From IMG/VR virus record IMGVR_UViG_3300020576_003495, positions 96,001 through 160,000 of that record: 64,000 nucleotides of DNA, one strand, 5' to 3'. Origin of the DNA: a virus (lineage: Duplodnaviria; Caudoviricetes). Numbering within the stretch: the first letter of the stretch is position 1; each line of letters starts with the position of its first letter. A program made the position numbers and the translations under genes. Under the pieces are notes generated by a model. It ran no database searches. It was not told where the DNA came from and worked only from the letters and a program-made list of their open reading frames with translations. Shown piece by piece: positions 1,662 through 39,150 of the stretch.

Positions 1662-1667
1662 TGCAAC

Positions 1668-16179: not shown

Positions 16180-16366
16180 TGGAAACTCAAGGAACAACGC
16201 TTTTGATTGAGAGTGAGAAGCGTGTGGGTGCAGTGTCTTTTTGTGAGTTCATGGCGCGTCGTTTGATGGAGTGTATTGAAGAATCCGGTGGGGACTTTAC
16301 CCGATTGGATAACTCAGGTGCCGAGTGGGTTCTGATGGTCGTAAACGAATACGAGAGTGGTGCACG

Positions 16367-23485: not shown

Positions 23486-23692
23486 AAAGAAAAACGTCGC
23501 GGAGTGATAACAACGGGTGCCTAATATTGGCCGATGTGACACCACCAACGAGCCGCTAGCAGCGGTCAAGGGGATGAAAAGTCTCCACCAGTAAAACAAC
23601 TTGTGAAGGTTGAGGTCGACTCAGGACACACCTTTGCGGATTGATCGGAGCAGGTTGTTTTACTGAATACCTTCGCAAGAGGGTGTTGTTTC

Positions 23693-23772
23693 GGGGATGG
23701 GGACTGCTTGGTGTGGTCGCTTCACTGTCAATGAAGATATTCAGGCGAGTTCGAATCTCGTCATTCCCGCCA
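23693..23772 (+). tRNA. tRNA-Asp(GTC)
   Basis: CTTCA-CTGTCAA-TGAAG, CCA. Confidence 0.92.
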
Positions 23773-23781
23773 CAGGAAATT

Positions 23782-23868
23782 GGGTTAGAAGCCGTAATGG
23801 TATGGCCCCGGACTGTAAATCCGAGAGCGTGGCTGCACGAGTTGGTTCGATTCCAACCTAACCCACCA
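23782..23868 (+). tRNA. tRNA-Tyr(GTA)
   Basis: CTGTAAA loop, long variable arm, CCA. Confidence 0.93.
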
Positions 23869-23903
23869 TTGACATTCTTTACAGAGTGCAGTATTCTGTA
23901 ATT

Positions 23904-24308
23904 ATGAAAATATGCACATCCTGCAAGCAAGAGCTTCCTTCGGAAGCGTTTTATAAGAACGCCGTTACGCTGGACGGTCTAGGTTCTCAGTGCAAGCGTT
24001 GCGACGGCGCGGGTAAGCAAGTTAAAGCTAGAGAAAATAAGCGCCGTCTTGTTGATGCTTTTGGCGGTTGTTGTAGCGTCTGCGGATACAGTAAATCCCT
24101 ACAAGTTCTACAGTTTCATCACCACGAGCCTAACAAAGAACGTGGTGTGTCTGATTTACTTAGGAATAAATACGAAGTAGCACTGGCCGAAGCTAAAAAG
24201 TGTATCTTGCTTTGCTCTAACTGTCATTTGGAATTACATGAAAAAGAGAGGCCACCATTAGTATATGGTGCTACTCGTAGGGGTAGGTCTAAAACAGTGG
24301 TATGCTAG
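23904..24308 (+). CDS. HNH endonuclease with N-terminal Zn ribbon
   Basis: CxxC, CSVCGY...LQFHH...KCILLCSNCHLELH; promoter TTGACA-17-TATTCT upstream. Confidence 0.88.
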   Translation: MKICTSCKQELPSEAFYKNAVTLDGLGSQCKRCDGAGKQVKARENKRRLVDAFGGCCSVCGYSKSLQVLQFHHHEPNKERGVSDLLRNKYEVALAEAKKCILLCSNCHLELHEKERPPLVYGATRRGRSKTVVC

Positions 24309-24341
24309 ACATAGGGGGTTCGATTCCCTCACCCACCACCA
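24309..24341 (+). pseudogene. 3' remnant of a Tyr-type tRNA
   Basis: GGGGG-TTCGATT-CCCTC-ACCCACC-A-CCA without a 5' half. Confidence 0.8.
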
Positions 24342-24343
24342 GA

Positions 24344-24890
24344 ATTCGCTTGGTTAGCGAAGTAGTCAGAGCACAACTGACGATAACTCAAACGTGGGAG
24401 ATGCCGTCACCTTAATAGGCAACCGTGGATGTCAGGGAGTCTGGCTCACTAAATCACTGGTAGAAGGATGTTGATTAGATACTCATCTGAATAAGGTCTT
24501 AGGGATTTGATCACCCTATCTCTACGGGTACCAGAGAGAGAAGCACTAACCATGCAGATCACCTTATTTTGTCCAACAGGGTCGCCCCCTGTAAGCAAAG
24601 CCTTGATTGATCATCAAGGTACTCCAAGGTCGTCCAATGGGAAGATACCCTGCATTTTGCGCGGGGAGATGCGGGTTTCGAAGTCCTGCCCTAAACGGAG
24701 TCAAGAACAGCGTAACGCTTACGGTGTAAATCCGAAGCTTCGTGGGCTAATCTACCCCCACTGAGGTTATCCCCACCAAGAAACAGAAGGGGCAGAATTT
24801 GTCGTTAATCAGAAAAGAATGCAGTTAGCCGAATAACCGGACTCTACTTGTAGAGCGACAGTGAAAGCCTGTACCGGGAGACACTAAGTA
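24344..24890 (+). ncRNA. large structured ncRNA candidate containing a degenerate tRNA-like module (24621-24701)
   Basis: no credible ORF, many hairpins, D- and T-arm-like element. Confidence 0.45.
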
Positions 24891-24896
24891 TTATAC

Positions 24897-24923
24897 GGGG
24901 GTATGGCTCAATTGGCACAGCAC
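24897..24923 (+). pseudogene. 5' remnant of an Ala-type tRNA
   Basis: GGGGGTA-TG-GCTCAATTGGCACAGC. Confidence 0.78.
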
Positions 24924-24940
24924 TTATGGTATACTAGGGT

Positions 24941-25417
24941 ATGAGTTATATATTTGTACCCGCCCCTGAGAATTACCCCGGAACGATCTACCAGTACGGT
25001 AATAGAATTTTAGAACACCATTTAGTGTGGTGGTTGTCTACGGGGTTACTTGTTCCAGATGGTTACGTTTTGCACCATAAAGACGAAGACCCAACTAACA
25101 ATGAATTTAGTAACTTGGAGTTGATGCTTGAGGGTGACCATATCCGCCACCACAACACACAGCACACCATTGCTAGATTTGTATGCCGTAGGTGCGGAAA
25201 TACGTTTGACCGAAATACCAGAGTTATTTCTGATGGGTCAAAACATATCTATTGCTCAAAAAGGTGTTCAGCGCTCAGCACATCAGGAAGATGCCGCCTT
25301 AGCGAAGATATGAAGGAAAAAGTGCGGTTGCTTAGAATTTCTGGTGGGTCGACTAGAAGTATTTCCAGAGAGTTAGGTATTAGTCGCAACACTGTGATGA
25401 AGTATTGGGGGATATAG
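24941..25417 (+). CDS. HNH homing endonuclease with C-terminal HTH
   Basis: LEHHLVWW, LHHKDEDPTNNEFSNL, LGISRNTVMKYW. Confidence 0.9.
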   Translation: MSYIFVPAPENYPGTIYQYGNRILEHHLVWWLSTGLLVPDGYVLHHKDEDPTNNEFSNLELMLEGDHIRHHNTQHTIARFVCRRCGNTFDRNTRVISDGSKHIYCSKRCSALSTSGRCRLSEDMKEKVRLLRISGGSTRSISRELGISRNTVMKYWGI

Positions 25418-25478
25418 ATGGGCTAAACAACTGATTTGCAATCAGTTAGGGACGGATCGTTACCGTCATTCTCCACCA
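25407..25478 (+). tRNA. tRNA-Ala(TGC), reduced D arm
   Basis: G3:U70 pair, A73, AACTGA-TTTGCAA-TCAGTT, CCA. Confidence 0.85.
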
Positions 25479-25578
25479 AGTTTCAAGCTAGACGGCAAGA
25501 TTGAGCTACGGGTGCTCTCTTGTTCGTGACAAGCCAGTAAGGCTCCCCAAAAGAGATAGCTGGTCGCTTTTTTACAAT

Positions 25579-25662
25579 GCGAGTGTGGCGTAATTGGTAG
25601 CCGCAGCGGTTTTAGAAGCCGCCGTTAATTCGTGGTGGGTTCGACTCCCCCCACTCGCACCA
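25579..25662 (+). tRNA. tRNA-Leu(TAG)
   Basis: cloverleaf, loop TTTAGAA, CCA. Confidence 0.92.
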
Positions 25663-25670
25663 AGTTTTAT

Positions 25671-25748
25671 CTACCTGTCGCCTAGTCTGGTATGGCCCCT
25701 GATTTGGGATCAGGCATAACCTCAGTTCAAATCTGAGCAGGTAGACCA
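25671..25748 (+). tRNA. tRNA-Pro(TGG)
   Basis: CCTGA-TTTGGGA-TCAGG, CCA. Confidence 0.92.
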
Positions 25749-25829
25749 GAATACTCCGTCATTGCGACTTGCACAGCAGCAGTGCCGGGAAAGGCAGTGT
25801 GCAAGCTGCCTGAGAGTTTTATTAGATTT

Positions 25830-25905
25830 GCCCCCTAAGCACATGTGGACGTGTGTCAGTCTCCAAAACTGAAGGTAGGCGGTTCGAGGCCGTCAGGGGG
25901 TGCCA
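25830..25905 (+). tRNA. tRNA-Trp(CCA)
   Basis: TCAGT-CTCCAAA-ACTGA, CCA. Confidence 0.92.
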
Positions 25906-25928
25906 ATGAAAGTAATTGCAAATACCCA

Positions 25929-25957
25929 TTGACAAATCGGGGGAGCTTTTATATAAT
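25929..25957 (+). promoter_or_regulatory. perfect consensus sigma70 promoter
   Basis: TTGACA-17 nt-TATAAT directly before ncRNA copy 1. Confidence 0.9.
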
Positions 25958-25963
25958 TAGTAA

Positions 25964-26316
25964 AACACTGTTAGATGCGTGTTTTTGGAGGTGGGCTTAG
26001 AAGCAGCCATCCTTAATGAGTAGGGCAAGTGCTGTATGCGGATACACATAGGCTGAGAAGGGCATCATTCAGGCCGAAAAGTTCAATAGGGTTTTGTGTG
26101 GATTCTTAGGGAGGCTGGCGTTAGGCCAGATAGCCGAAAGACGAAGCAAAATCACGCCAAGGCAGCTTCGCAAACTGCTGAAGGAATGGGAGTAGCACTC
26201 CCTGAGAACGAATGGGCGTACAGGGCCACACAGCTAGTATCAAGGGGAAGTTGCCGGTAATCCCCACGATCCCTTTTGGCGTGACAGCACACCAAGAATA
26301 CGCATCTAACACTGTT
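25964..26316 (+). ncRNA. 23S rRNA H43/H44 mimic ncRNA, copy 1
   Basis: GGAGGTGGGCTTAGAAGCAGCCATCC ... GCGTGACAGCACAC inside a long terminal helix GTTAGATGCGTGTTTTTGG/CCAAGAATACGCATCTAAC. Confidence 0.85.
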
Positions 26317-26326
26317 GTAAAAAGTT

Positions 26327-26366
26327 TGGCGAGGAGGTTGTTGGTTACCAGACAGGCTCATAACCT
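26327..26366 (+). pseudogene. 5' remnant of a CAT-anticodon tRNA
   Basis: retains D region and AGG-CTCATAA-CCT, lacks T arm and 3' strand. Confidence 0.75.
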
Positions 26367-26405
26367 TTTTCGCTAGTTGTGTTATGATACCCGTGGGGGT
26401 ATGCA

Positions 26406-26858
26406 ATGACACACTTACTATGTTGCAGTTGTAAAGAAAGCAAGCCTTTAGCTAGCTTTTCCAAAGACAAGAGTTCAAAGCGTGGGTACGCTAGTAAATG
26501 TAAAGACTGCCATAATACCTACGTGCGTACTGTGTGGTACCCAAAGAACAAGGATAAGCAGGTAGCGTCTGTTGCTCGTTTTAAAACAGCCAACAGACTG
26601 AAAGAAATCGCTTGGCGGCACGGTGTTCCGTTAGCGGATGTAGAAGAAGCAATAGAGCGCAGTTCTGGGGCTTGTGAAAGCTGCGGTTCCACTGTCTCTG
26701 TTGTGCTAGACCACTGCCACACCACGTCTAAAGTTAGAGGCGTCTTGTGCATGCGTTGTAATACAGTTTTAGGTAGGCTAGGGGATTCTTACGAGAGTGT
26801 TAAACAGCACATGGAGAGTTTGCTGGCCTATTTGGAAAAAAGTTTCGCGGGTGAGTGA
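26406..26858 (+). CDS. endonuclease VII-like homing endonuclease
   Basis: CESCG...LDHCHTT..VRGVLC..CN..LG. Confidence 0.9.
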   Translation: MTHLLCCSCKESKPLASFSKDKSSKRGYASKCKDCHNTYVRTVWYPKNKDKQVASVARFKTANRLKEIAWRHGVPLADVEEAIERSSGACESCGSTVSVVLDHCHTTSKVRGVLCMRCNTVLGRLGDSYESVKQHMESLLAYLEKSFAGE

Positions 26859-26923
26859 AACGTCTTACACAATGGGTTCATATCCCATTAACAGCAGGGT
26901 TAGACTCCCTGTACCCGCAACCA
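26846..26923 (+). tRNA. initiator tRNA-fMet(CAT)
   Basis: C1:A72 mismatch, GGG/CCC anticodon stem, CCA. Confidence 0.9.
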
Positions 26924-26925
26924 GT

Positions 26926-27052
26926 TTCTGTGGCGTAAATAACGATTTCCTCAATGCCAATGAAGTAACGTGGGTTCGAATCCCATCGGCTCGTAAGGGC
27001 TGTCGTCTAGTGGTTAGGACACTAAAAATTTCGTTGTTGCTTGTTCCCAGAA
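26926..27052 (+). ncRNA. YrlA-like Y RNA (permuted tRNA-like domain)
   Basis: T arm, closed acceptor-like stem, then D arm, on a long terminal stem ending CTTGTTCCCAG. Confidence 0.8.
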
Positions 27053-27162
27053 TTAAACAAAGGCCAGAAGCCTAAGTAGTTCCCCGAGCATACGGTAAAC
27101 GTGGGGTTCCCTTGAACAGACTGTTCTTCAACTTCTGTTCGGGGGGATCATGCGACAGTTTT

Positions 27163-27301
27163 ACGGTGTGTGCTTTCGTGCCGGTTCTACTAGAATCAAA
27201 ATTTTATCAAAGCATAGAACCTTGGTGGGGGCTAGGAAAGCCTCAAAATCACTAAAGGTCAGCAGTTGTATTTACAGAATTACGTGGGGGCTTGTTCCTG
27301 T
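27163..27301 (+). ncRNA. Y-RNA-like stem 2
   Basis: GGTGT...CTTGTTCC terminal motif shared with neighbours. Confidence 0.55.
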
Positions 27302-27332
27302 GTTCATAGAAGGATCACCCCAGTAGCAGATT

Positions 27333-27398
27333 TGCGTGGTGTATGGTTACCGTTACTTCTATCTTAGTGAAATCACACGGTTACCGCTTGTTCCCGCA
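27333..27398 (+). ncRNA. Y-RNA-like stem 3
   Basis: GTGGTGTA...TACTTC...GCTTGTTCCC. Confidence 0.65.
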
Positions 27399-27407
27399 TT
27401 TATTTAT

Positions 27408-27484
27408 TGCTTGTTAGCTCAGTCCGGCAGAGCATTGTCTTGATAAGGCACAGGTCGTCGGTTCAAATCCGACACAAGCAACCA
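27408..27484 (+). tRNA. tRNA-Ile(GAT)
   Basis: loop TTGATAA, CCA. Confidence 0.9.
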
Positions 27485-27488
27485 AGTT

Positions 27489-27551
27489 TCGGTGGTGTTG
27501 GTTAGTCGTTCTTCTTTCGGTGAAAAATCCGACTAGCTGTTTGTTCCCCGA
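27489..27551 (+). ncRNA. Y-RNA-like stem 4
   Basis: GTGGTGTT...TTCTTC...TTTGTTCCC. Confidence 0.6.
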
Positions 27552-27611
27552 TTAATTTCCCCAGTCTTAGTGGCGGGATGGTCTTAGGTATTTATACCCA
27601 CAGGAGTCAAC

Positions 27612-28112
27612 ATGTCCCCCGAACAGAAACAAGCCACATCCGAAGGTATTGAGAATGCTTTAGCTAGCGTACCCCCCGAGATTGTTGATGAAGCCCTACG
27701 CTTCTGGTATGCCTACGCAAAACTCCATTATCGTTTTACATCGGCACAAGTCCTCGTTTCTTTCCTTGCTCGCAAGGGCACAACACCCGGAAATGGCAAG
27801 GGTTGGCGGGATTGTTGGGGGTCGATTTGCGTGAAAGCCAAAAAGCAAGGCATCATGCAAAAAGTGGGGATCATGGTCACCACTGAGAAGCATACCCACA
27901 TGGGTCACGGTGCGTACTGGCAGTCCAAGGTTTATGAAGGTGGGGATGAGCAGTATCGAAACAGCCCCGAGCAGGATTTGAAGCGTGCGCTGTACATGCG
28001 CTGGCTCAAGAAGGATTATGAGAATCTGCGTGACTACACGGATGACGTGTTTTCGATGGGGGTCAAGTTTGCCCTTGAGAACAAAGAGTACGTTGCGGGG
28101 ATAAAAATTTAA
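27612..28112 (+). CDS. hypothetical protein
   Basis: AGGAG RBS, clean ORF. Confidence 0.7.
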   Translation: MSPEQKQATSEGIENALASVPPEIVDEALRFWYAYAKLHYRFTSAQVLVSFLARKGTTPGNGKGWRDCWGSICVKAKKQGIMQKVGIMVTTEKHTHMGHGAYWQSKVYEGGDEQYRNSPEQDLKRALYMRWLKKDYENLRDYTDDVFSMGVKFALENKEYVAGIKI

Positions 28113-28148
28113 CTGTGTGTGCTAACGTACAGACAGGTAGTTTCAACT

Positions 28149-28223
28149 GTGTCCCTGACAGAGAGGCCGATGTGCAGGATTGCAAACCCTGATAGCCCGG
28201 TTCAATTCCGGGGGGACACTCCA
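28149..28223 (+). tRNA. tRNA-Cys(GCA)
   Basis: loop TTGCAAA, U73, CCA. Confidence 0.9.
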
Positions 28224-28226
28224 AGT

Positions 28227-28378
28227 TACGTAGCATCACGGAAGGAACGTGCGTGGCCCACGAGGTCGATGGGGTACGGTCAGTTTTCATGTGGGGGTCG
28301 ACGCCCTAACATGCAAAGCTTAATGCTGTGCTGACAAGAAGGTGAGCAGGGCGCAACCCTGTAAGACCTTCCTACGTA
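28227..28378 (+). ncRNA. structured ncRNA candidate
   Basis: closed by TACGTAG/CTACGTA, internal hairpins, flanked by tRNAs. Confidence 0.45.
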
Positions 28379-28381
28379 TTT

Positions 28382-28459
28382 GCGCTCTGAGCTAGTCTGG
28401 TGATTCAGCGACAGTTTGAAGAACTGTAGAACTAGGTTCGATTCCTAGAGGGTGCACCA
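28382..28459 (+). tRNA. tRNA-Phe(GAA)
   Basis: ACAGT-TTGAAGA-ACTGT, CCA. Confidence 0.88.
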
Positions 28460-28478
28460 AGATTACTGTATAGTCGAG

Positions 28479-28553
28479 TGGGGTGATATGCAATGGATGC
28501 ATACTTGGCTTTGAACCAAGGTTAGTCAGGTTCGATTCCTACCACCCCTTCCA
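28479..28553 (+). tRNA. tRNA-Gln(TTG)
   Basis: CTTGG-CTTTGAA-CCAAG, CCA. Confidence 0.88.
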
Positions 28554-28559
28554 GTTTTT

Positions 28560-28643
28560 AGAGAGATGAGCTTTGGAAGCAAACTATCTTGGAAAGGTAG
28601 TCCATCCGAAAGGGTGACAGTTCGATTCTGTATCTCTCTGCCA
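28560..28643 (+). tRNA. tRNA-Ser(GGA)
   Basis: CTATC-TTGGAAA-GGTAG, long variable arm. Confidence 0.88.
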
Positions 28644-28651
28644 TGTTTTAA

Positions 28652-28739
28652 GGTTAGGTGCGCGAGTGGCTAAAGCGTCTTGTTTGCTAAACAATGAGTC
28701 CGAAAGGGCACTAGGGTTCGAACCCCTACCTAACCGCCA
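28652..28739 (+). tRNA. tRNA-Ser(GCT)
   Basis: loop TTGCTAA, long variable arm, CCA. Confidence 0.92.
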
Positions 28740-28745
28740 TGTTAC

Positions 28746-28822
28746 GCCGGGTTGACGGAATTGGCATACGTGCAAGTTTCAAAAACTTGATCTTGCGGGT
28801 TCGACTCCCGCACCCGGCACCA
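28746..28822 (+). tRNA. tRNA-Leu(CAA), short variable arm
   Basis: CAAGT-TTCAAAA-ACTTG, CCA. Confidence 0.9.
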
Positions 28823-28828
28823 AGTTTT

Positions 28829-28905
28829 GCCCTTGTGGTGGAATAGGCATACACACGCGCTTGAGGGGTGCGGTTCTGTCGGTTCGAGTCCGACCAAGGG
28901 TACCA
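28829..28905 (+). tRNA. tRNA-Leu(GAG), short variable arm
   Basis: CGCGC-TTGAGGG-GTGCG, CCA. Confidence 0.9.
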
Positions 28906-28911
28906 GTCTAT

Positions 28912-28982
28912 GCCCTCACTATCGAATAGCATCAGGTTTCCTAAACCAGATTGTGACAGTTAAACTCTGTCTGAGGGCACCA
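28912..28982 (+). tRNA. tRNA-Arg(CCT), minimal D arm
   Basis: loop TTCCTAA, perfect acceptor and T stems, CCA. Confidence 0.8.
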
Positions 28983-28983
28983 T

Positions 28984-29054
28984 ACCCCGACTGTGGGACA
29001 GATTTTGGCCTTCTAAGCCAAAAATGGGAGGTTCGAAACCTTCTCGGGGTGCCA
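28984..29054 (+). tRNA. tRNA-Arg(TCT), minimal D arm
   Basis: TTGGC-CTTCTAA-GCCAA, CCA. Confidence 0.82.
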
Positions 29055-29060
29055 AGTTTT

Positions 29061-29134
29061 GCGGATGTAGCTTAGTGATAAAGCGCTTGTTTGCCAAGCA
29101 AGATACGCGAGTTTGATTCTCGTCTTCCGCTCCA
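29061..29134 (+). tRNA. tRNA-Gly(GCC)
   Basis: loop TTGCCAA, U73, CCA. Confidence 0.9.
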
Positions 29135-29140
29135 AGTTTC

Positions 29141-29215
29141 GCCCTTGTAGCACAGTGGCAGTGCACTCGCTTGGTAAGCGAGAGGTCGTGGGTTCGATTC
29201 CGACCAAGGGCACCA
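29141..29215 (+). tRNA. tRNA-Thr(GGT)
   Basis: CTCGC-TTGGTAA-GCGAG. Confidence 0.92.
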
Positions 29216-29221
29216 AGTTTC

Positions 29222-29296
29222 GCCCTTTTAGCGCAGTGATAGAGCAATCGTTTCGTAAGCGATAGGTCGTCTGTTTGATTCAGACAAGGGGCACCA
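29222..29296 (+). tRNA. tRNA-Thr(CGT)
   Basis: ATCGT-TTCGTAA-GCGAT. Confidence 0.9.
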
Positions 29297-29306
29297 GAGT
29301 TTTAAT

Positions 29307-29383
29307 GGGACGTTAGCTCAGTCGGTAGTAGCACTCGCCTCTTAAGCGATAGGTCGTCAGTTCGATCCTGACACGTCCTACCA
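29307..29383 (+). tRNA. tRNA-Lys(CTT)
   Basis: loop CTCTTAA, CCA. Confidence 0.92.
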
Positions 29384-29454
29384 TCACATACTCCTTGACA
29401 AACTGTGGGGATTGGATTATCATTACTCCATAGTCAATCAACGGAGTGATGATC

Positions 29455-29745
29455 ATGTGGAATATAGTAATCGAAGGTAGTCAGGAAGTGTACGTTCGCC
29501 ATAATAATGAAATCGTGGCCCGGTTCAAGTACGCATCCCCCAAGGCCAGTGCCAAGCATTTTGTGAAGTTTCTGAAGGCGAACTACAGCCCCGAAGAATA
29601 CTTTGCCAAGCGCAAGTTGGGCATCCCGCCTTTGCGTATCCTTCATCAAAAGGGGTACGTCAGCTACAACGTTGAACGTGCCGACAAGGAAGCTATTGCG
29701 GGGGCTAAGAAGGTTTGGGCGATGTATGATCGTCTGAGTTTTTAA
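29455..29745 (+). CDS. hypothetical protein
   Basis: promoter 29395 and ACGGAG RBS. Confidence 0.65.
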   Translation: MWNIVIEGSQEVYVRHNNEIVARFKYASPKASAKHFVKFLKANYSPEEYFAKRKLGIPPLRILHQKGYVSYNVERADKEAIAGAKKVWAMYDRLSF

Positions 29746-29751
29746 AGTTTC

Positions 29752-30087
29752 GGTGTTCGTAGAGGGTGGGCTTAGAAGCAGCCATCCCTTAAAGAGTAGG
29801 ACAAGTGCTGTATGCAGGTACACATAGGCAGTTTAAGGGCATAGTTAACTGGCCGAAAAGTTCAATAGGGTTTGTGTGGATTCTTAGAACGGCTTGGGGT
29901 CTGGACTCCAAGTACCAATCGAAAGACGAAGCAAATCACGCCAAGGCAGTCTCGCAAACTGCTGAAGGAATGGGGGTTGCACCCACTGAGAGCGAATGGC
30001 ATACAGAGCCACACGGCAAGTATCAATGGAAGGCAGAGATGCTAAATCCAACGATTCCTTTTAGCGTAGTAGCACACTACGAACACC
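29752..30087 (+). ncRNA. 23S rRNA H43/H44 mimic ncRNA, copy 2
   Basis: AGGGTGGGCTTAGAAGCAGCCATCCCTTAAAGA ... AGCGTAGTAGCACAC closed by GGTGTTCGTAG/CTACGAACACC; colinear with copy 1. Confidence 0.85.
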
Positions 30088-30146
30088 ACCCATTTTTAGG
30101 AGATTTATCATGCGTTCAGAAGAAAGTGACAAACGCCCCGAATAAT

Positions 30147-30221
30147 GGGCGTGTAATTCAATTGGGAGAATCACCGGCTTTTACCCGGTTTACCAGAGTT
30201 CAAATCTCTGCGCGCCTACCA
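30147..30221 (+). tRNA. tRNA-Lys(TTT)
   Basis: ACCGG-CTTTTAC-CCGGT, CCA. Confidence 0.9.
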
Positions 30222-30239
30222 GTTGCAAGTAATTTCAAT

Positions 30240-30274
30240 GGTGATTGAAGAGCAAATTGGCCGCGCCAGCAGCC
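30240..30274 (+). pseudogene. 5' remnant of a His-type tRNA
   Basis: GGTGATTG-AAGAGCAAATTGGCCGCGCCA matches the D region of the adjacent tRNA-His. Confidence 0.7.
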
Positions 30275-30285
30275 ATAGTTTCAAT

Positions 30286-30374
30286 GGAGTCGTAAGAGCA
30301 AAGAGGACGCGCCACACGGCTGTGAACCGTGTCTCGAAAGAGGTTAGTGGGTTCAAGCCCCACACGACTCCCCA
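30286..30374 (+). tRNA. tRNA-His(GTG) with long variable arm
   Basis: 8-bp acceptor (G-1:C73), CACGG-CTGTGAA-CCGTG. Confidence 0.9.
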
Positions 30375-30496
30375 ACTGCATCAAAGGCTTTAACGGAAGC
30401 TACTAATTAGCGCACGGGTGTTCCAGTTTTTCTTGTAGTCGTAGCTGTAACGGTAAAAAGTCTCGTATGATTAAGCTATGCGAGGCGGGTAACAAT

Positions 30497-30573
30497 GCTG
30501 GTGTCGTCTAATGGACTAGGACATTTGACCTTCAATCAAAGCAATGTGGGTTCGACTCCCATCGCCAGCGCCA
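30497..30573 (+). tRNA. tRNA-Glu(TTC)
   Basis: TTTGA-CCTTCAA-TCAAA (C at position 33), CCA. Confidence 0.87.
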
Positions 30574-30610
30574 TTACTTAGTAAGAAATCTTTGTTGACC
30601 GATACCGTTC

Positions 30611-30646
30611 AAGGTGAGGCGGGTTTGACTCCCGTACCGGATACCA
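30611..30646 (+). pseudogene. 3' remnant of a tRNA (probably Glu)
   Basis: GCGGG-TTTGACT-CCCGT-ACCGGAT-A-CCA with no 5' half. Confidence 0.72.
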
Positions 30647-30655
30647 AGTTTCAAT

Positions 30656-30688
30656 TCCGCAGAATCCAAGCAAGGTGCAAGGACTTGT
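30656..30688 (+). pseudogene. 5' remnant of an Asn-type tRNA
   Basis: TCCGCAG-AA-TCCAAGCAAGGTGCAAGGA D arm, truncated in the anticodon stem. Confidence 0.6.
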
Positions 30689-30714
30689 CGGAAAGTGGGT
30701 GCAAAAAGATCAAT

Positions 30715-30803
30715 TCCCCGGTACTCTAATGGTAAGAGGCGATACTGTTAATATCGTGTAGTCGGCCTAGCGCCGTATAGAAGTTCGAGTCTTCTCTGGG
30801 GAG
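30715..30803 (+). tRNA. tRNA-Asn(GTT) with long variable arm, no encoded CCA
   Basis: CGATA-CTGTTAA-TATCG. Confidence 0.88.
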
Positions 30804-30808
30804 CACGT

Positions 30809-31216
30809 ATGAAGAATGGTGAGTATACTTTAGTCATAGCGCCTGAAGGGTATCCGGGCAAGAGGTACCGTGGTCGCTACTGCTATGAACATCATTTGGT
30901 TTGGTGGTTGAATACAGGTGAAGTCGTACTTGCTGGCGAGTTGATTCACCACAAAGATGAGGACAAGCGCAATAACGTTTTCCTTAACCTTGAGAAAATG
31001 TCAAAGACTTCTCATGATGCACACCACAGTAACCTACCGATTAAGTCGCCTGTTCTGGTGTCTCTTTTTTGTTTTTGGTGCGGTTCTGCTTTCACCTTGA
31101 GGAAGCATGTTTACGTGTGCAGGGTTAGAGCTAACGGGCATGCTGATGTGTGTTGTGGAAGGTCGTGCCAAGTCAAGAAGCAGCAGCATGACAAAAAAGT
31201 TAAAAAGGAAAATTAA
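30809..31216 (+). CDS. HNH homing endonuclease
   Basis: YEHHLVWW, IHHKDEDKRNN..NLE; related to 24941..25417. Confidence 0.9.
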   Translation: MKNGEYTLVIAPEGYPGKRYRGRYCYEHHLVWWLNTGEVVLAGELIHHKDEDKRNNVFLNLEKMSKTSHDAHHSNLPIKSPVLVSLFCFWCGSAFTLRKHVYVCRVRANGHADVCCGRSCQVKKQQHDKKVKKEN

Positions 31217-31290
31217 GCTATCAGGGTATAGCCTCTGCCTCGAAAACAGAAGGTTCCGAAAGGGATGAGTTTCGATTACTCAATTTTCCA
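31207..31290 (+). tRNA. tRNA-Ser(CGA), no encoded CCA
   Basis: GGAAAAT/ATTTTCC, loop CTCGAAA, long variable arm. Confidence 0.85.
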
Positions 31291-31341
31291 CACTAAAACT
31301 GTTCGACTTCTGCTAAAATATTATTTTTGTGGAGTCGAACC

Positions 31342-31866
31342 ATGCGGATAAGTAAAAAACAAATAGCTAGGTTTTGGTCTAACGTGCAGAAAACAGATAG
31401 CTGTTGGCTTTGGTTGCGGCAACCAAATAATAAAGGCTACGGTAAGGTAACTATAAGGCCGAATAGTCAAGAGCGTGTAATGCTATTGGCACACAGGCTA
31501 GCTTGGCTTCTAGTTAAAGGTGAAATACCAGATGGGTTATTTGTCCTACACAAGTGCGATACTCCCTTGTGTTGCAATCCCGAACACTTATTCCTTGGAA
31601 CTCAACAAGATAACATGGGTGATATGTGGGCTAAGGGGCGCAGTCGACTGCATGAGTTCAGGCACTTGGGGACGATTGCTGCACATACTGAAGTGGCTAC
31701 GCAAAAGCGGAAAGATACGTTTATTGCCATTGAACACCAGAAGGGTAAGCGCAACTCGCAGTTTGGGTCTTTTTGGATTACCGATGGTAAAGTTAATAAG
31801 AAGTGGCGTTCTGAGTTGGGCTGTATCCCCTCTGGTTTTTTTAAAGGACGTAGTAAATTTTTTTAA
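31342..31866 (+). CDS. HNH homing endonuclease
   Basis: CWLW, AHRLAW, VLHKCDTPLCCNPEHLFLGTQQDN. Confidence 0.93.
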   Translation: MRISKKQIARFWSNVQKTDSCWLWLRQPNNKGYGKVTIRPNSQERVMLLAHRLAWLLVKGEIPDGLFVLHKCDTPLCCNPEHLFLGTQQDNMGDMWAKGRSRLHEFRHLGTIAAHTEVATQKRKDTFIAIEHQKGKRNSQFGSFWITDGKVNKKWRSELGCIPSGFFKGRSKFF

Positions 31867-31871
31867 GTTTT

Positions 31872-31959
31872 GGAAACGTGGCAGAGTGGTCAATTGCACC
31901 GGCTTTGAATACCGGCAGTCCGAAAGGGCACGTGCGTTCGAATCGCACCGTTTCCGCCA
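31872..31959 (+). tRNA. tRNA-Ser(TGA)
   Basis: loop TTTGAAT, long variable arm, CCA. Confidence 0.92.
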
Positions 31960-32021
31960 TAAATTATTAGAATGTCCCCCCCTAGTGTAGAGTGTTAAAG
32001 TTGGCTTTTTTTAGGTGCGAT

Positions 32022-32444
32022 ATGAATAACTTTGCAAAGATTCTTAAAGGTGGGCCGGGTTCGGGTCGTCATGCGGGAGCCTATTCACCCGCTCAAAGAA
32101 AAAAAATTGAAGAAAGATCACACATGCTCTTGCGTAATAGTCGTTTAAATGGGGGGGGTAAGCAGTCACACACACCCGTAGTTGTTCCAATTTATCACAA
32201 TAAAGACGCTAAAGACTCGGAACTGAATAGGAATGCCTATCAGATGCTAGTTGATAAAGGTCTAGTTAAGCATGTAAGCAGTGTAGATCACGTTAGAGAG
32301 CCGTGGACGTCTAAATTCACCCCCGAGCCTACTAAGTATAGGCAGCATGATCACACGTTGTTAACAGGGGAGTTAACAGATGCGGGTAAAGCACACCCAG
32401 CGGCTAGTTTGGCTGTTAATTCTAACGGTGAGTTTACTACTTAA
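32022..32444 (+). CDS. hypothetical putative virion protein
   Basis: leader FAKILK-GGPGSG. Confidence 0.7.
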   Translation: MNNFAKILKGGPGSGRHAGAYSPAQRKKIEERSHMLLRNSRLNGGGKQSHTPVVVPIYHNKDAKDSELNRNAYQMLVDKGLVKHVSSVDHVREPWTSKFTPEPTKYRQHDHTLLTGELTDAGKAHPAASLAVNSNGEFTT

Positions 32445-32456
32445 AGCCGCGTCCCC

Positions 32457-33281
32457 ATGTTTTCACATATCCTTAAGTTCAACCACAACCATGGGGTTGA
32501 TGGAAAGTTTTCATCGTCCAACGGTTCGGCGTCTGTTCAATCTACCGCCCCTGTAGGCATTCAATTTGTCTCCCCCAATGTGCGTGAAGGCACGGACATT
32601 AACTACGCCATGCGGCGTTCAGGCGGCACGTTACAGCGCCATTTCCGCAAAGACTTCCAAGCCGTTGACAATCTTTTGGGGACGCAAGGCGCTCAAGAAG
32701 ATGCAATAGGCGCATGGTCGGACGGTGGTGAGAATTCAATCGCACAATTTAGTGCTAACGACCTTCCATTAGAAAAGCTGAATGTTTCAGCCGCGATGAA
32801 AGGCTATTTAGCAGAACAGAAAGCCGTAGTTTCCTTTAAAACAGGAAAAGGCAACCAGAAGATGCATACGTTTGATGCGAACATTTCTGACCCTGTGTTG
32901 CTGAGCAAGGAACTGGTAGAGCAAGGACTCCCATTTCATACATTGCTCCCCCATGCAGGACATGAAGGATTTCAGGTGATTGTGTTTAGCGACAACGCAT
33001 CATCGAAAGAAGGTAAGGCGCTGTCCCTGAATGTAACCAAAGCGGCTAAGTCTTTCGGCAGCAAGCACACCTATATGAAGGGTAGCGGGGGCTTCATTGG
33101 GAGTTGGGATACCCGTGAAGCAGGAAGAACAGAGTACAATAAAGTCATTGATCCCTATATTGCCAAGCACCCGGAGTTGAAAGCCGGTTGGGACGCCATG
33201 GTGAAAAAGATGAAGCACCGTGTCACAAAGTTCATCAACATATTATTTAAGAAGGCTTTTACAGGAGTATCCTATGCCTAA
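32457..33281 (+). CDS. hypothetical putative virion effector
   Basis: leader MFSHILK-FNHNHGVDGKF. Confidence 0.7.
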   Translation: MFSHILKFNHNHGVDGKFSSSNGSASVQSTAPVGIQFVSPNVREGTDINYAMRRSGGTLQRHFRKDFQAVDNLLGTQGAQEDAIGAWSDGGENSIAQFSANDLPLEKLNVSAAMKGYLAEQKAVVSFKTGKGNQKMHTFDANISDPVLLSKELVEQGLPFHTLLPHAGHEGFQVIVFSDNASSKEGKALSLNVTKAAKSFGSKHTYMKGSGGFIGSWDTREAGRTEYNKVIDPYIAKHPELKAGWDAMVKKMKHRVTKFINILFKKAFTGVSYA

Positions 33282-33492
33282 GATAAATTTACCTGAGTTT
33301 CCCCCCTTAGACTCGAAACATTATCCCTCTGATGAAGCCATCTCTGCGGAGCTAAAAAGACGTAGAGCGTTGATTGACGCAGCATGGCCTGATGATCTTG
33401 AAGTGTCCGACGACGAACTGCATGAATTGGGTTACGCTGTAGAAAAGACCGGGGACAACAAGGGTCTTAACGTGATCTTGGGGCGCGGTTAG
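33274..33492 (+). CDS. small acidic protein (candidate immunity protein)
   Basis: AGGAG RBS, overlaps the stop of the upstream gene. Confidence 0.65.
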   Translation: MPKINLPEFPPLDSKHYPSDEAISAELKRRRALIDAAWPDDLEVSDDELHELGYAVEKTGDNKGLNVILGRG

Positions 33493-33516
33493 TCTGCACG
33501 GTTGATTGGAGTTGCT

Positions 33517-35133
33517 ATGTTTGCTGCCCTACTAAGAAATGATATATCTTATGTCCTTAAAGGGGATGTGGTAGGCCACCCTTTCCGTGGAAACCAATAT
33601 GGAAAAGGCGTATCCCAAGGCCAAGACTATACCGACAGTAAGGGCCGTGCACATATTGGTGATTTAGACCCAACACAGCGCAGAGCAGAGTCGGCGTTTT
33701 ATGGTGCTATTGAAAAAGATTTGCCGTCGCTGATCAAAGCCTATCAGGAAAAGAACGGGCACACGATTGACGCGGATAAGGTAAAAGAACTATCCCCCGA
33801 TTTCCTGTCGAACCCTTCTTTGTTTGCTGCTGCCGTGCATGAGCCTAGTTCGTTGCTCTCCAAGGTGTTGTTTAGTACAGAACTGGATGCTAAGGCCAAA
33901 GCAGGGGATACTAGCCCCACGATACTGACCGCAGGTGGCAGTGGGTCGGGCAAGAGCGAAGCCATGCCGATTGTGCTAAAGGCCATCAACGCTAAAAAGG
34001 GTGGTTTGGTTTTTGATTCTGTCTTGGGTAACTTTGGTTCAGCCAAGAGCAAGATTGATGAAGCCTTGGTTAAAACTAAAGGTGATGTGGTGATTGCCTA
34101 CACCAACAGAAAACTTGAGGACGCTTTCCGTTCAAACGCTAAACGTGCACGCACAGTTTTGACGAAGACGTTGGTTGGTGCACATGTCGGTGCTTCTAAT
34201 AATATTAGAAAGCTGGCAGAACACTACGCTGGAAATCCTCGTGTGAAAATCCACGTGGTCAATAATTTTGGGGGTGTCGAGGATATTCACCAAGGAAAAT
34301 TGGAGGATGTTCCCACATACGGTTCAGATACAACCGATAAACTGCATGCAATTGCTGATACAATGCATGCCAACAAGGAAATTAGTGATGAAATCTACGC
34401 CCACATTACAAAAGGACGATCCGTTCAGAAAAGCTGCGCTCGAATTCTCAAAGAAACATCCGGGAAAAACTTTGGACGATATTGCTTTGGAACAGGAGAA
34501 GGAATCCGATGCCAGAGCAGCGGAACACCTGAAGAATCCGAAGGTGCAAGCGGCGTTCGGAAAGGCGAGTCCGCAGGGCACCCCTTCCGGGGAAACCAAT
34601 ACACCAGCAAAGACATTGGAACAGGTGGTGGAACAAATCAATCAGGAGCTAGCGGAGACAGTTCCCTTCCACTTCGGGCAGACGGGAAAGTAGAGCTAAC
34701 GCACTGGTCGAATGCGGCTAATTTGAGCAGCATTGATCCTTCGCACTACGGTCACGGCTATGCGGGGGCTGAAAAAGCACGTAAGGACTCTGACCCTGAT
34801 GATTGGGTCGACAGGAGTTACTACGGCATTGGTGTAGGCCAGCCGGGGGGCTATGAAAAAGAAGAAGGCTTGGGTAGTCACAAGTACATCAGTGGTGTTG
34901 ATCCCAAGTCGCTCTACGATATTGTCAAAGACCCCGATGGGCTGAATCCCAAAGGCACGCTGGATAGCTGGACAAACCAGATGAGCCTGTATGAGAAAAA
35001 CATCAAGGGCAAAGGGTATACAGGATACTGGTTGAAGCACCCGAGTCTAGGGATGGTTGCAGCGGTGTTCAAGCCCCTTGTCCCTGAGCAGTACATTGCC
35101 CCCGTACAGAAGTTCGCTAAGTTCTTCAGATAA
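33517..35133 (+). CDS. two-domain protein: zeta-toxin-like kinase plus unknown C-terminal domain
   Basis: AGGSGSGKS, VHEPSS, FDSVL; GHPFRGNQY motif precedes each domain. Confidence 0.75.
   Translation: MFAALLRNDISYVLKGDVVGHPFRGNQYGKGVSQGQDYTDSKGRAHIGDLDPTQRRAESAFYGAIEKDLPSLIKAYQEKNGHTIDADKVKELSPDFLSNPSLFAAAVHEPSSLLSKVLFSTELDAKAKAGDTSPTILTAGGSGSGKSEAMPIVLKAINAKKGGLVFDSVLGNFGSAKSKIDEALVKTKGDVVIAYTNRKLEDAFRSNAKRARTVLTKTLVGAHVGASNNIRKLAEHYAGNPRVKIHVVNNFGGVEDIHQGKLEDVPTYGSDTTDKLHAIADTMHANKEISDEIYAHITKGRSVQKSCARILKETSGKNFGRYCFGTGEGIRCQSSGTPEESEGASGVRKGESAGHPFRGNQYTSKDIGTGGGTNQSGASGDSSLPLRADGKVELTHWSNAANLSSIDPSHYGHGYAGAEKARKDSDPDDWVDRSYYGIGVGQPGGYEKEEGLGSHKYISGVDPKSLYDIVKDPDGLNPKGTLDSWTNQMSLYEKNIKGKGYTGYWLKHPSLGMVAAVFKPLVPEQYIAPVQKFAKFFR
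34388..34693 (+). CDS. out-of-frame nested ORF (candidate antitoxin)
   Basis: AAGGAA RBS, helical charged product, overlaps the interdomain linker of 33517..35133. Confidence 0.5.
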   Translation: MKSTPTLQKDDPFRKAALEFSKKHPGKTLDDIALEQEKESDARAAEHLKNPKVQAAFGKASPQGTPSGETNTPAKTLEQVVEQINQELAETVPFHFGQTGK

Positions 35134-35138
35134 GTTTT

Positions 35139-35162
35139 GCCGGTTTCGCATAGTGGGATTGC
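35139..35162 (+). pseudogene. 5' half of a disrupted Thr-type tRNA
   Basis: GCCGGTT plus D arm; pairs with AACCGGC-ACCA ending at 35899. Confidence 0.85.
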
Positions 35163-35234
35163 CCTTACTAGCTTAGTGGCATTGCACTAAATCTTTTCTC
35201 CGTGTATACTGTTGGCTTTTGCGGAGACTAGCCG

Positions 35235-35777
35235 ATGAAAGGGATACCACTAACATACCCTTATAATGATTGTGTGGGTTACATTCAACACAGTAAGGAC
35301 GGCAGGGCGTATTTGTACCTATACAACCCAACAACTAAAAGAAGGCGTCTAATAGCTTACGCTAGGTATTTATTGTCTGTGGAGTTGGGGCGCTTTTTGC
35401 TGCCAGAAGAACAAGTTGACCACATAGACGATAACCCGCTTAACGATGCGTTGTCTAATCTACAGGTTCTCTCTGTGGATGACCACAAGAAAAAGACAGC
35501 TAAGAGTGCTGCCAGCAAAATAGAGTGGGTAGAGTTTTCTTGCCCTACATGCGGTGTTAAATTTAAACGCACTAGGCGAATTGTTAACCAGAGTATGAAG
35601 TCTTATGGTGATAGTTGGGCTCCAAGCTGTTCGATAAGCTGCGCTACGGCACGCACTAAAGGTACATCTGACGACACTAAGCTTAAAATAAAACAGCTTA
35701 GGCTTTTGGGGCAGTCTGGTTATGAAATAGCCAGTGCTCTAGGCGTTAGCAGGAACACGGTAATGAAGTATTGGTAA
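35235..35777 (+). CDS. HNH homing endonuclease with C-terminal HTH
   Basis: VDHIDDNPLNDALSNL, LGVSRNTVMKYW; paralog of 1668..2210. Confidence 0.9.
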   Translation: MKGIPLTYPYNDCVGYIQHSKDGRAYLYLYNPTTKRRRLIAYARYLLSVELGRFLLPEEQVDHIDDNPLNDALSNLQVLSVDDHKKKTAKSAASKIEWVEFSCPTCGVKFKRTRRIVNQSMKSYGDSWAPSCSISCATARTKGTSDDTKLKIKQLRLLGQSGYEIASALGVSRNTVMKYW

Positions 35778-35781
35778 TTTT

Positions 35782-35857
35782 GCTTTCGTGCCTCAATTGG
35801 TACAGGACAACTCTTGTAAGGTTGCATTTGTCGGTTCGAGTCCGACCGAAAGCTCCA
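35782..35857 (+). tRNA. tRNA-Thr(TGT)
   Basis: CAACT-CTTGTAA-GGTTG, CCA. Confidence 0.92.
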
Positions 35858-35863
35858 AGAACG

Positions 35864-35899
35864 CAGCTTGAGTGTGTTCGATTCACACAACCGGCACCA
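35864..35899 (+). pseudogene. 3' half of the disrupted Thr-type tRNA
   Basis: GTGTG-TTCGATT-CACAC-AACCGGC-A-CCA. Confidence 0.85.
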
Positions 35900-35965
35900 A
35901 AATAATGCTTGACAAAACTGTTGCATAGAGTAGAATCACTTCCACTTATAACGGAGTGATTAAAT

Positions 35966-36250
35966 ATGAATACTATTAAACAGGAGGATACCCCCGCCCG
36001 TCGACGTTACACCATTCAAACCGTGTATTACTTGCGGGATAAGGTAGTCCGTACCAATCATGCGGCACACGCCAACAATGCCGTGCAGAACTGCGTAGGA
36101 CACATGCAACTCAATCGCTATGCCGCCATGAGGGCGGAAGTGTTTGACAGCGCCAGCGGCGTGCTGCATGCGGTTATTACCCGTAGTATTGTTGGGCACA
36201 TCGGTATCGTGTTCAAGCGTGAAGTGAAGGAGCACTACAATGGCGGATAA
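35966..36250 (+). CDS. hypothetical protein
   Basis: promoter 35909, ACGGAG RBS. Confidence 0.65.
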   Translation: MNTIKQEDTPARRRYTIQTVYYLRDKVVRTNHAAHANNAVQNCVGHMQLNRYAAMRAEVFDSASGVLHAVITRSIVGHIGIVFKREVKEHYNGG

Positions 36251-36659
36251 AATCTCTAGGCATGAGCAGTTGGTGCGTGCGGCTAAAGGGCGAGCCATTA
36301 TCACGTCTTACTTGAATACCAAGACAGAACCCGTTCCCCGTGGGAAAATATTGGAAGACTGTGGAGACAGACTGGCCGAGTTGGATTATACCGAATCGAG
36401 TCTGGACAACTTTCTGTACACCATGGGTAACAGCGGTTTGTTGACCAAGAAGCCCGACCCTACCGGAAAATTATATCTGTGGAGTACCATGCCCAGCGAT
36501 GGGGGCAAAGTGCCGTTGCGAAAGGCACCATCGAGTAAGGTCAAGGATAAACAGGACAAAGCTAGTCCAGCAGCGATTACACTGGACATTATCAAGTCGT
36601 CGGGGCGTGTTCGGTTGACGATCAACGGTCTGGTGATCGAAGTCGGTGTGATTGAGTAA
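36240..36659 (+). CDS. putative winged-helix protein
   Basis: AGGAG RBS, wHTH-like N-terminal region. Confidence 0.55.
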   Translation: MADKISRHEQLVRAAKGRAIITSYLNTKTEPVPRGKILEDCGDRLAELDYTESSLDNFLYTMGNSGLLTKKPDPTGKLYLWSTMPSDGGKVPLRKAPSSKVKDKQDKASPAAITLDIIKSSGRVRLTINGLVIEVGVIE

Positions 36660-38302: not shown

Positions 38303-38384
38303 GAAAACCTTTTCGTAGTCCAGTGGCAAGATATGTGACATACCAGACACGACGGCGGGTTCGATTCCCCCCGAAAAGGTTTTC
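38303..38384 (+). ncRNA. tRNA-like RNA with 13-bp acceptor helix and no valid anticodon arm
   Basis: GAAAACCTTTTCG/CGAAAAGGTTTTC, D-like and TTCGATT loops. Confidence 0.6.
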
Positions 38385-38698: not shown

Positions 38699-38875
38699 AG
38701 TTTTAGTCAGTGCAGTGCATCGGAACGGTTCGGGTTCTGGTTGGCAGCAAGGTCGTGTCATGGTCGAAACAGTTGATGCGGTACTGCACTTACTAAAGTC
38801 AGGTCTGTATTGAGGTTGTCACAGGTTCCATACCCCTATGGCTGGAAATCCGGCAACGGTAGAGCAGACTTGATA

Positions 38876-39150
38876 ATTGCTGTAATTCTACTTGACGGTA
38901 AGCGTTTCGGACGCGGGGGCAGAACCCGCCGCCTCCACCAAACAGGGTCTTGCAAAGGGCTTTGCTTAATGGGGGCGACACAGTTTCGACGGGGCGTGGA
39001 TAAGATGGTGGCAGCAGGATAGGTGACTGCCCTAAGCAGCGCAAAACTTTAACTGCAAACGACTCGCAGTATCGTGTAGCGGCTTAGCCGTTACGGAGTT
39101 TGCCCACCAAACCTACTTTGTAGGGGGCTTGGCAACAGAAAGTGGGCAGT
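38876..39150 (+). ncRNA. ssrA: permuted two-piece tmRNA, tag (A)ANDSQYRVAA
   Basis: acceptor piece ends CGCCTCCACCA (38940) upstream of coding piece GGGGGCGAC...TTCGAC (38971); tag ORF 39055-39087. Confidence 0.93.

Follow-up and report, generated by a model that had tools for sequence, protein, structure and literature searches.

In the transfer RNA (tRNA) array of an uncultured phage, nuclease genes are discrete mobile inserts or cassettes, which lie flush with tRNA genes, carry no stop codon of their own and end at a triplet that was already present in the tRNA. The stretch of DNA that we analysed, hereafter referred to as the window, has 64,000 nucleotides (nt) and corresponds to bases 96001-160000 of the 178,170-bp IMG/VR viral contig IMGVR_UViG_3300020576_003495, a record that is 91% complete. 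Three nuclease open reading frames (ORFs) of this window, named ORF1, ORF2 and ORF3, run into the 5' end of the tRNA gene that follows them and stop within it. This had been reported in an earlier note made from the sequence, and the ORF stops and the tRNA calls match. In our judgement, the overlap is probably a by-product of the minimal, flush insertion of homing endonuclease genes, and not a stop-codon device.

Coordinates given below are those of the window, and features are on the plus strand unless stated otherwise. The G+C content is about 47%, and the long ORFs are predominantly on the plus strand. ARAGORN made 31 tRNA calls in the whole record, all of them inside the window, and 30 of these were tabulated. 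Searches with Pfam and PHROGs revealed at least nine free-standing His-Me/HNH nuclease ORFs in the tRNA array, one of which is a weak match only; matches of the nucleases to PHROG HNH/EndoVII families reach 8.6e-28. Metagenomes of rivers, activated sludge and wastewater, from nine studies in all, contain near-identical DNA. No RNA run is listed among the carriers of this DNA, and the wastewater runs labelled 'RNA-Seq' are probably DNA. When the GenBank phages were searched with a 7.9-kb region, only tRNA-sized matches and no close relative were found.

ORF1 [24941-25417] encodes 158 amino acids (aa) and has an HNH_3 domain (4.5e-09) and a C-terminal helix-turn-helix (HTH), as found with Pfam and PHROG. 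Its C-terminus consists of the family end ...SRNTVMKYW and two extra residues (G, I), and its stop codon TAG (25415-25417) corresponds to positions 9-11 of tRNA-Ala(TGC) [25407-25478]. This tRNA, the sole Ala tRNA in the array, has G3:U70, a 7-bp acceptor stem, an encoded CCA and a shrunken D arm. A protein identical to ORF1 is encoded on 10 public contigs. ORF2 [26406-26858], of 150 aa, is an endonuclease VII-type His-Me nuclease (Endonuclease_7, 4e-15). Its final codons run through AAAAGTTT, a spacer-like motif, and its TGA (26856-26858) occupies positions 11-13 of an initiator-like tRNA-Met(CAT) [26846-26923], in which C1 is at 26846, while ARAGORN places the start at 26847. In this tRNA, C1 is mismatched with A72, the anticodon stem has three G-C pairs at its foot, and CCA is encoded. 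ORF3 [30809-31216], of 135 aa, matches HNH_3 (2.4e-07), and its TAA (31214-31216) corresponds to positions 8-10 of tRNA-Ser(CGA) [31207-31291]. The latter, the only gene with that anticodon in the array, has no CCA (A73-C74 is followed by ACTAAA), and the next HNH gene lies directly downstream. All three overlapped tRNAs fold as cloverleaves. In the ARAGORN drawing, tRNA-Ser(CGA) has an acceptor stem of 8 bp and a T stem of 4 bp, and so resembles the 8/4 'allo-tRNA' cloverleaves (PMC5389517).

Other ORFs of the window come close to a tRNA without entering it. The nuclease ORFs 1668-2210, 31327-31866 and 35235-35777 stop 4-9 nt before a tRNA, and so does ORF 41170-41511, which matches no family. 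ORF 31327-31866 is open from TTG at 31327, but the ATG at 31342, behind a GGAG, is the likely start of this HNH_3/His-Me nuclease [31342-31866]; its own stop is 5 nt before tRNA-Ser(TGA) at 31872. This genome has eight ORFs of at least 100 aa whose end is close to the start of a tRNA, and seven of them end between -13 and +9 of that start. Since, in addition, the layout recurs in many phage contigs, the overlap pattern is no chance coincidence.

Public contigs from the Logan assemblies were aligned to positions 23500-36500 of the window. A sibling strain, seen in two studies, is near-identical to the window in the shared parts and differs from it by whole cassettes. One sibling contig, L148, was retrieved by means of its identical ORF1 protein, and its junctions were compared base by base. 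At ORF3, contigs from two studies join position 30804 to position 31207, skipping 402 nt, with CAGTTTT in between. In L148 the empty site, from tRNA-Asn to tRNA-Ser, reads ...CTGGGGAGCCA/GTTTT/GGAAAATTAAGC..., while the filled site of the window reads ...CTGGGGAGC/ACGTATG...(402 nt)...GTTAAAAA/GGAAAATTAAGC... The mobile insert with ORF3 [30805-31206] has 402 nt, with the start codon 4 nt in and no stop, and stands in place of the 7 nt CAGTTTT of the empty allele. Both alleles share the first 27 nt of tRNA-Ser, TAA included, and this triplet at positions 8-10 is therefore native to the tRNA. On the other side, the insertion has destroyed the encoded CCA of tRNA-Asn(GTT) [30715-30804], which reads GAGC/ACGT in the window and GAGCCA in the sibling, and indels within this tRNA at 30739-30770 distinguish the filled from the empty allele near the insertion. 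The only Shine-Dalgarno-like sequence for ORF3, GGAG, sits in the 3' acceptor strand of tRNA-Asn, so that ORF3 is embedded in tRNAs at both ends. An exact-pattern scan for the empty junction found none in the IMG/VR or JGI metagenome contigs; the junction was found in the Logan assemblies.

The reciprocal case was found between tRNA-Gly(GCC) and tRNA-Thr(GGT), where the window has the empty site [29132-29140] ...GCTC/CA AGTTTC/GCCC. The window reads here ...CCGCTC/CAAGTTTC/GCCCTTGTAG, which corresponds to tRNA-Gly, a 6-nt spacer and tRNA-Thr. L148 has a 575-nt insert placed exactly between C74 and C75 of tRNA-Gly, which holds a 180-aa HNH_3 ORF (1.6e-13). This ORF runs through CA+AGTTTC, and its stop TAG is made by positions 8-10 of a canonical tRNA-Thr (68 bits). 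L148 also has an HNH ORF on the minus strand, behind a tRNA-Lys that ends A73-C74; the last 20 nt of the ORF, stop included, lie inside tRNA-Lys, which scores 65 bits. Overlap by insertion arises irrespective of orientation. On the minus strand of L148, positions 14952-16439, from tRNA-Lys(TTT) to tRNA-Glu, hold two genes without counterpart in the window, which encode a 138-aa HNH protein and a 299-aa Cys-rich protein without Pfam match.

A CCA is encoded in 27 of the 30 tabulated tRNAs, usually followed by a spacer (A/T)GTTTy. The three tRNAs that lack it, Leu-TAA, Asn and Ser-CGA, all end N73-C74, and a nuclease ORF comes directly after each. The CCA is lost in three of the four tRNAs that are followed by a nuclease, and in none of the 26 others (Fisher test, ~0.001 by hand arithmetic). 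Insertions right after C74 number five, three in the window and two in L148. The sequences suggest that these insertions share one site within the encoded CCA, following C74.

Larger units, in which a nuclease is accompanied by a tRNA, are present as well. Upstream of ORF2 there is a 5' stump of an older tRNA [26328-26367], which retains a CAT anticodon loop; the stretch from this stump to ORF2 contains a -10-like box of the extended type (TGTTATGAT) and, as Shine-Dalgarno sequence, GGGGG. The corresponding Met site of L148 has a single, intact and different tRNA-Met(CAT) between identical flanks, with neither ORF2 nor the initiator-like tRNA; hence ORF2 and its tRNA-Met come and go together. 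The Thr cassette [35139-35899] is composed of an HNH-HTH ORF [35235-35777], which has its own stop 4 nt before the tRNA, and of tRNA-Thr(TGT) [35782-35857]. Its ends are the remains of an old tRNA, with the acceptor strand GCCGGTT (35139-35145) and the 3' end ...AACCGGC-A-CCA (35873-35899) complementary at 7/7 positions. Depth over ORF 35235-35777 is 0 in the sibling strain, where this HNH gene and tRNA-Thr are missing together; HNH gene 23886, too, is missing there. ORF1 is present in both strains. It is preceded by another 5' stump [24897-24923], Ala-like and made of the acceptor strand and the D arm (GGGGGTA TG GCTC...), and by a TATACT -10-like box, 3' of the stump, which ends 5 nt before its start codon. 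Local alignment of the cargo tRNAs to the flanks was uninformative, the stumps being heterologous, and these were found by reading the flanks by eye. The earlier note had claimed that the overlap locks a nuclease to its tRNA genetically. Joint presence or absence was indeed observed for ORF2 and tRNA-Met between the siblings, but tRNA-Ser(CGA) is unchanged in the sibling without ORF3 and is thus not tied to it by the overlap, and the overlap is not the cause of the linkage.

Further tRNA remains are found around these cassettes. Window positions 23693-24341 hold tRNA-Asp, tRNA-Tyr, the HNH ORF 23886-24308 and a 3' tRNA stump that ends ...CACCCACCACCA, a cassette in which the nuclease is placed behind its tRNAs; between the same flanks, L148 (9159-9403) has three divergent, low-scoring tRNAs (unassigned, Asp and Tyr) and no nuclease. 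Debris of tRNAs lies within 1551-1667, 26953-27044 and 30600-30651, where 3' halves, which comprise a T arm, an acceptor strand and a CCA, are found at about 1567-1593 and 30610-30651, and 5' halves at about 1598-1625 and 27000-27025. Segment 26953-27044 also has a weak Y-RNA-like (YrlA) Rfam match. From its sequence, the array looks as if it had been broken and repaired repeatedly.

Homologs of ORF1 and ORF3 in IMG/VR contigs sit in tRNA arrays, and the ORF3 family adjoins tRNA-Asn in most of the contigs that carry it, while ORF2 homologs are mostly away from tRNAs. In other IMG/VR phage contigs, the nuclease ORF overlaps with the next tRNA in 13 of 19 non-redundant junctions; the tRNA is Asn, Asp, Phe, Ala, Met, Pro or Ile, and the stops are at positions 4-77, in all frames. 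In the remaining junctions the ORF stops 1-8 nt (4/19) or 39-54 nt (2/19) before the tRNA. Five members of the ORF1 family end with ...SRNTVMKYW and 0-2 more residues, but only one of them overlaps its tRNA, and the other four stop 1-39 nt before it. Three members of the ORF3 family have a C-terminal Cys/His motif whose end coincides with tRNA position +1. Across the homologs the overlap thus recurs, with a stop that varies in position and frame, and most members of the ORF1 family lack it. Judged from these alignments, the conserved trait is an ORF flush with a tRNA, and not the overlap itself.

The window encodes a permuted, two-piece transfer-messenger RNA (tmRNA) [38848-39178] with the tag ANDSQYRVAA. 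Neither SmpB nor a phage-encoded CCA-adding enzyme was found in the 91%-complete record. Among five other contigs with relatives of the nucleases beside tRNAs, two have a tmRNA above cut-off, and the two contigs judged 100% complete are not among these. No terminator-like site lies between ORF1, ORF2 or ORF3 and the respective downstream tRNA. A scan for sigma-70 promoters found no strict-consensus promoter directly before any of the three ORFs, and the total did not exceed that of shuffled sequences. The -10-like boxes before ORF1, ORF2, ORF 1668 and ORF 35235 were read by eye and serve as leads only. Before HNH ORF 1668-2210, a TTGACG-17-TATAAT element ends 6 nt before the ATG (window 1634-1670). 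The spacing of the promoter boxes at this ORF and at ORF1 suggests that some of the nuclease mRNAs may be leaderless.

Two layouts can be distinguished among these arrangements. In the first layout, of which ORF3 and the reciprocal HNH insert of L148 are examples, a bare nuclease ORF occupies the gap of a few bases that separates two tRNAs, and its insertion point immediately follows C74 in the encoded CCA of the upstream tRNA. In the second, a promoter, a nuclease and its own tRNA form a cassette that takes the place of the whole or a part of a resident tRNA with the same isotype, and stumps of the latter are left behind; ORF2 with tRNA-Met and the Thr cassette are assigned to this layout, and ORF1 with tRNA-Ala probably belongs here. 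In both, the ORF reaches the edge of the mobile DNA without a stop, and translation ends at the first in-frame stop of the neighbouring tRNA, often its conserved U8-A9-R10, while the two to four extra C-terminal residues would be tolerated. Insert-free tRNA genes are the predicted targets of the nucleases, which would cut them in or close to the CCA end and spread by repair. Selection for small inserts, for tight linkage to the target and for intact neighbouring tRNAs would lead to the flush arrangement. If an ORF and its tRNA share a transcript, maturation of the tRNA by RNase P would give an mRNA without a stop codon, because the stop lies inside the tRNA, and this mRNA may be cleared by the tmRNA of the host or the phage. 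Together with a ribosome-binding site that is buried in the upstream tRNA, as in ORF3, the loss of the stop would keep nuclease output low. Bacterial polyadenylation was considered as a general way of restoring the stop, as in mitochondria, and rejected, since only ORF1 (..UAU U + A) would regain one, whereas ORF2 and ORF3 would remain without.

In the model that follows from the earlier note, the overlap would be an evolved, self-limiting switch, in which RNase P removes the stop codon, ribosomes stall and the tmRNA of the phage or the host tags the product for decay, so that the dosage of the nuclease is capped and coupled to the maturation of the tRNA. Such a switch would be served by genes that are all on one strand without a terminator-like site in between, by a tmRNA of the phage, and by the position of ORF3, whose processing at both ends would yield an mRNA that lacks a stop and nearly all of its leader. 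The recurrence of overlaps in the 13 other junctions, overlaps that are shorter than the unconditioned random-frame expectation, and the tight limits on homing endonuclease expression that are known in T4 for I-TevI could also be read in its favour. We nevertheless consider the switch unlikely. In sister genes a stop of their own precedes the tRNA by 1-9 nt, and a stop situated 4-9 nt ahead of the RNase P cut would be nearly as exposed to 3' trimming, so that an overlap adds little. Neither the position nor the frame of the stop is conserved, and the antisense HNH gene of L148 runs 20 nt into a tRNA, where the logic of RNase P cannot apply. Nor is the tmRNA a constant companion of these genes, given the contigs that lack it, and the record has no recognizable phage SmpB; to our knowledge, every host possesses its own tmRNA, which makes a phage copy unnecessary. 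A related proposal, to which we give a small chance, is that the maturation of the tRNAs on either side controls whether the nuclease is expressed, as in a 'tRNA-punctuated' selfish gene. Only the unprocessed and unfolded precursor would then yield a full-length enzyme of the ORF3 type, whereas RNase P and the 3' processing of the upstream tRNA would leave a leaderless, stop-less mRNA to be cleared by tmRNA; insertion after C74 would be selected and would shift the upstream tRNA to endonucleolytic 3' processing and CCA addition.

Insertion as the source of the overlap has to be weighed against several observations that do not favour it. With Rfam scores of 34.7 bits (Met), 33.5 bits (Ser) and 24.8 bits (Ala, under the cut-off of 29), the three overlapped tRNAs are the weakest of the array, which might mean that the overlap is costly or that these tRNAs serve another purpose. 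An empty allele of ORF1 was not found among the contigs compared, and its 3' stump is also ill-defined. Stop positions were compared with a null in which 264 tRNAs were read in three frames; the first stop has a median position of 44, and a stop triplet begins at position 8 in 44% of the tRNAs. The observed overlaps have a median of 14, against 44 for this unconditioned null (Mann-Whitney p = 0.001), and there could be some selection for early stops, perhaps beyond protein tolerance. When the null is restricted to stops within position 77, 50% fall at or below position 15, as compared with 11 of the 16 observed (p ~0.1, hand arithmetic), which fits the use of whichever stop comes first. Selection on stop position is not claimed, since significance is lost under the null restricted to stops inside the tRNA. 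The low Rfam scores, with tRNA-Ala below cut-off and its D arm shrunken, and the many tRNA stumps of the region would also fit overlapped tRNAs that are decayed or decoy copies, for instance cleavage-immune mimics of the target that persist only because they flank the nuclease, which are never matured and so create no conflict between translation and processing. This is quite improbable, as tRNA-Ala(TGC) and tRNA-Ser(CGA) are the sole genes for their anticodons in the array, tRNA-Ala retains G3:U70 and its 7-bp acceptor stem, tRNA-Met carries the hallmarks of an initiator, and tRNA-Ser(CGA) is conserved in the allele without nuclease; in L148, the overlapped tRNA-Thr and tRNA-Lys have high scores, as given above. 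An annotation artefact, with ORFs that are unreal or end earlier, or tRNA 5' ends that are a few bases off, is hardly credible. ARAGORN and Rfam do differ by 1 nt in the starts of tRNA-Ala and tRNA-Met, but the overlaps, of 10-13 nt, are far above this uncertainty, all three ORFs have full-length family matches with conserved C-terminal motifs that extend to the junction, and the boundary of ORF3 is fixed to the base by the empty allele.

Several other features of the array were noticed. At 25929-25957 and 29395-29423 there are sigma-70 promoters that match the consensus perfectly or nearly so (12/12 and 11/12); they closely follow tRNA blocks and precede non-coding stretches. An Rfam match to large-subunit ribosomal RNA (rRNA), in the region around its position 1200, is at 29764-29808 (23.9 bits), and spikes in the depth of run X10 in bins 25670-26103 and 29576-30009 suggest rRNA-like sequence. 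Segment 37692-37852 has an Rfam tRNA match over 161 nt and may be an interrupted tRNA gene, and ARAGORN calls a tRNA with a 2-base anticodon '(ac)' at 38308-38380.

Flush insertion of nuclease genes into a tRNA array can be compared with several known systems. In intronless homing, free-standing homing endonuclease genes lie next to a target allele that is immune, and insertions of such genes split genes in T4-like phages (segG, mobE and Aeh1 nrdA). The nucleases described here likewise lie beside the gene that they would target, and as in those systems, where flanking sequence is co-converted, the filled allele differs from the empty one close to the insertion, as seen in the indels of tRNA-Asn mentioned above. 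The 'spare part' that accompanies the nuclease, however, consists here of an entire heterologous tRNA with the isotype of the old one, of which stumps persist. The Escherichia coli secG-leuU co-transcript of an mRNA and a tRNA is processed by RNase P, and in mitochondrial 'tRNA punctuation' stop codons overlap with tRNA borders or are completed there. As in these two cases, a coding region abuts a tRNA, and maturation of the tRNA 5' end would set the 3' end of the mRNA; here, by contrast, the arrangement has arisen by insertion of mobile DNA, not by genome reduction. Homing endonucleases in phage tRNA clusters are already known, with SegB and the enzymes of T5 as examples (cited in PMC2330249; PMC8421152; PMC13096335). 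SegB is a free-standing GIY-YIG homing endonuclease in the tRNA cluster of T4 (PMC2330249; PMC13096335). The enzyme recognises the T-arm, with a preference for tRNA-Asn, and its cuts often fall directly behind CCAR, at the 3' terminus of the tRNA gene (PMC2330249). Like SegB, which drives the inheritance of neighbouring tRNAs, the nucleases described here are selfish genes that lie between phage tRNA genes and are missing from close relatives, and they would have tRNA genes as targets, as far as can be judged from the insertion sites. Unlike SegB, they are of the His-Me/HNH_3 and endonuclease VII types, with many copies per array, and their ORFs are butted against tRNAs, inserted after C74, with the stop taken from the next tRNA. 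In the literature that we searched on homing endonucleases in tRNA clusters, no description was found of stops borrowed from the next tRNA, of insertion within the CCA or of nuclease-tRNA replacement cassettes.

Phage tRNA arrays are viewed as counter-defence cargo against bacterial immunity that cuts tRNAs, and nucleases of the SegB type reshape these arrays (PMC13096335). For several HNH nucleases, the present comparison provides filled and empty alleles that are exact to the base and come from natural populations of wastewater, activated sludge and rivers. It shows that a mobile unit can consist of a bare ORF, with neither a ribosome-binding site nor a stop of its own, and it yields predicted target sites at which uncharacterised HNH_3 homing enzymes can be tested directly. 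A recurrent conflict in annotation, the protein gene that overlaps a tRNA, is thereby explained. The array also offers a simple natural system for studying possible limits that tRNA processing and trans-translation set on the dosage of a selfish gene. If the overlap is purely structural, the array would represent ordinary natural history of homing endonucleases.

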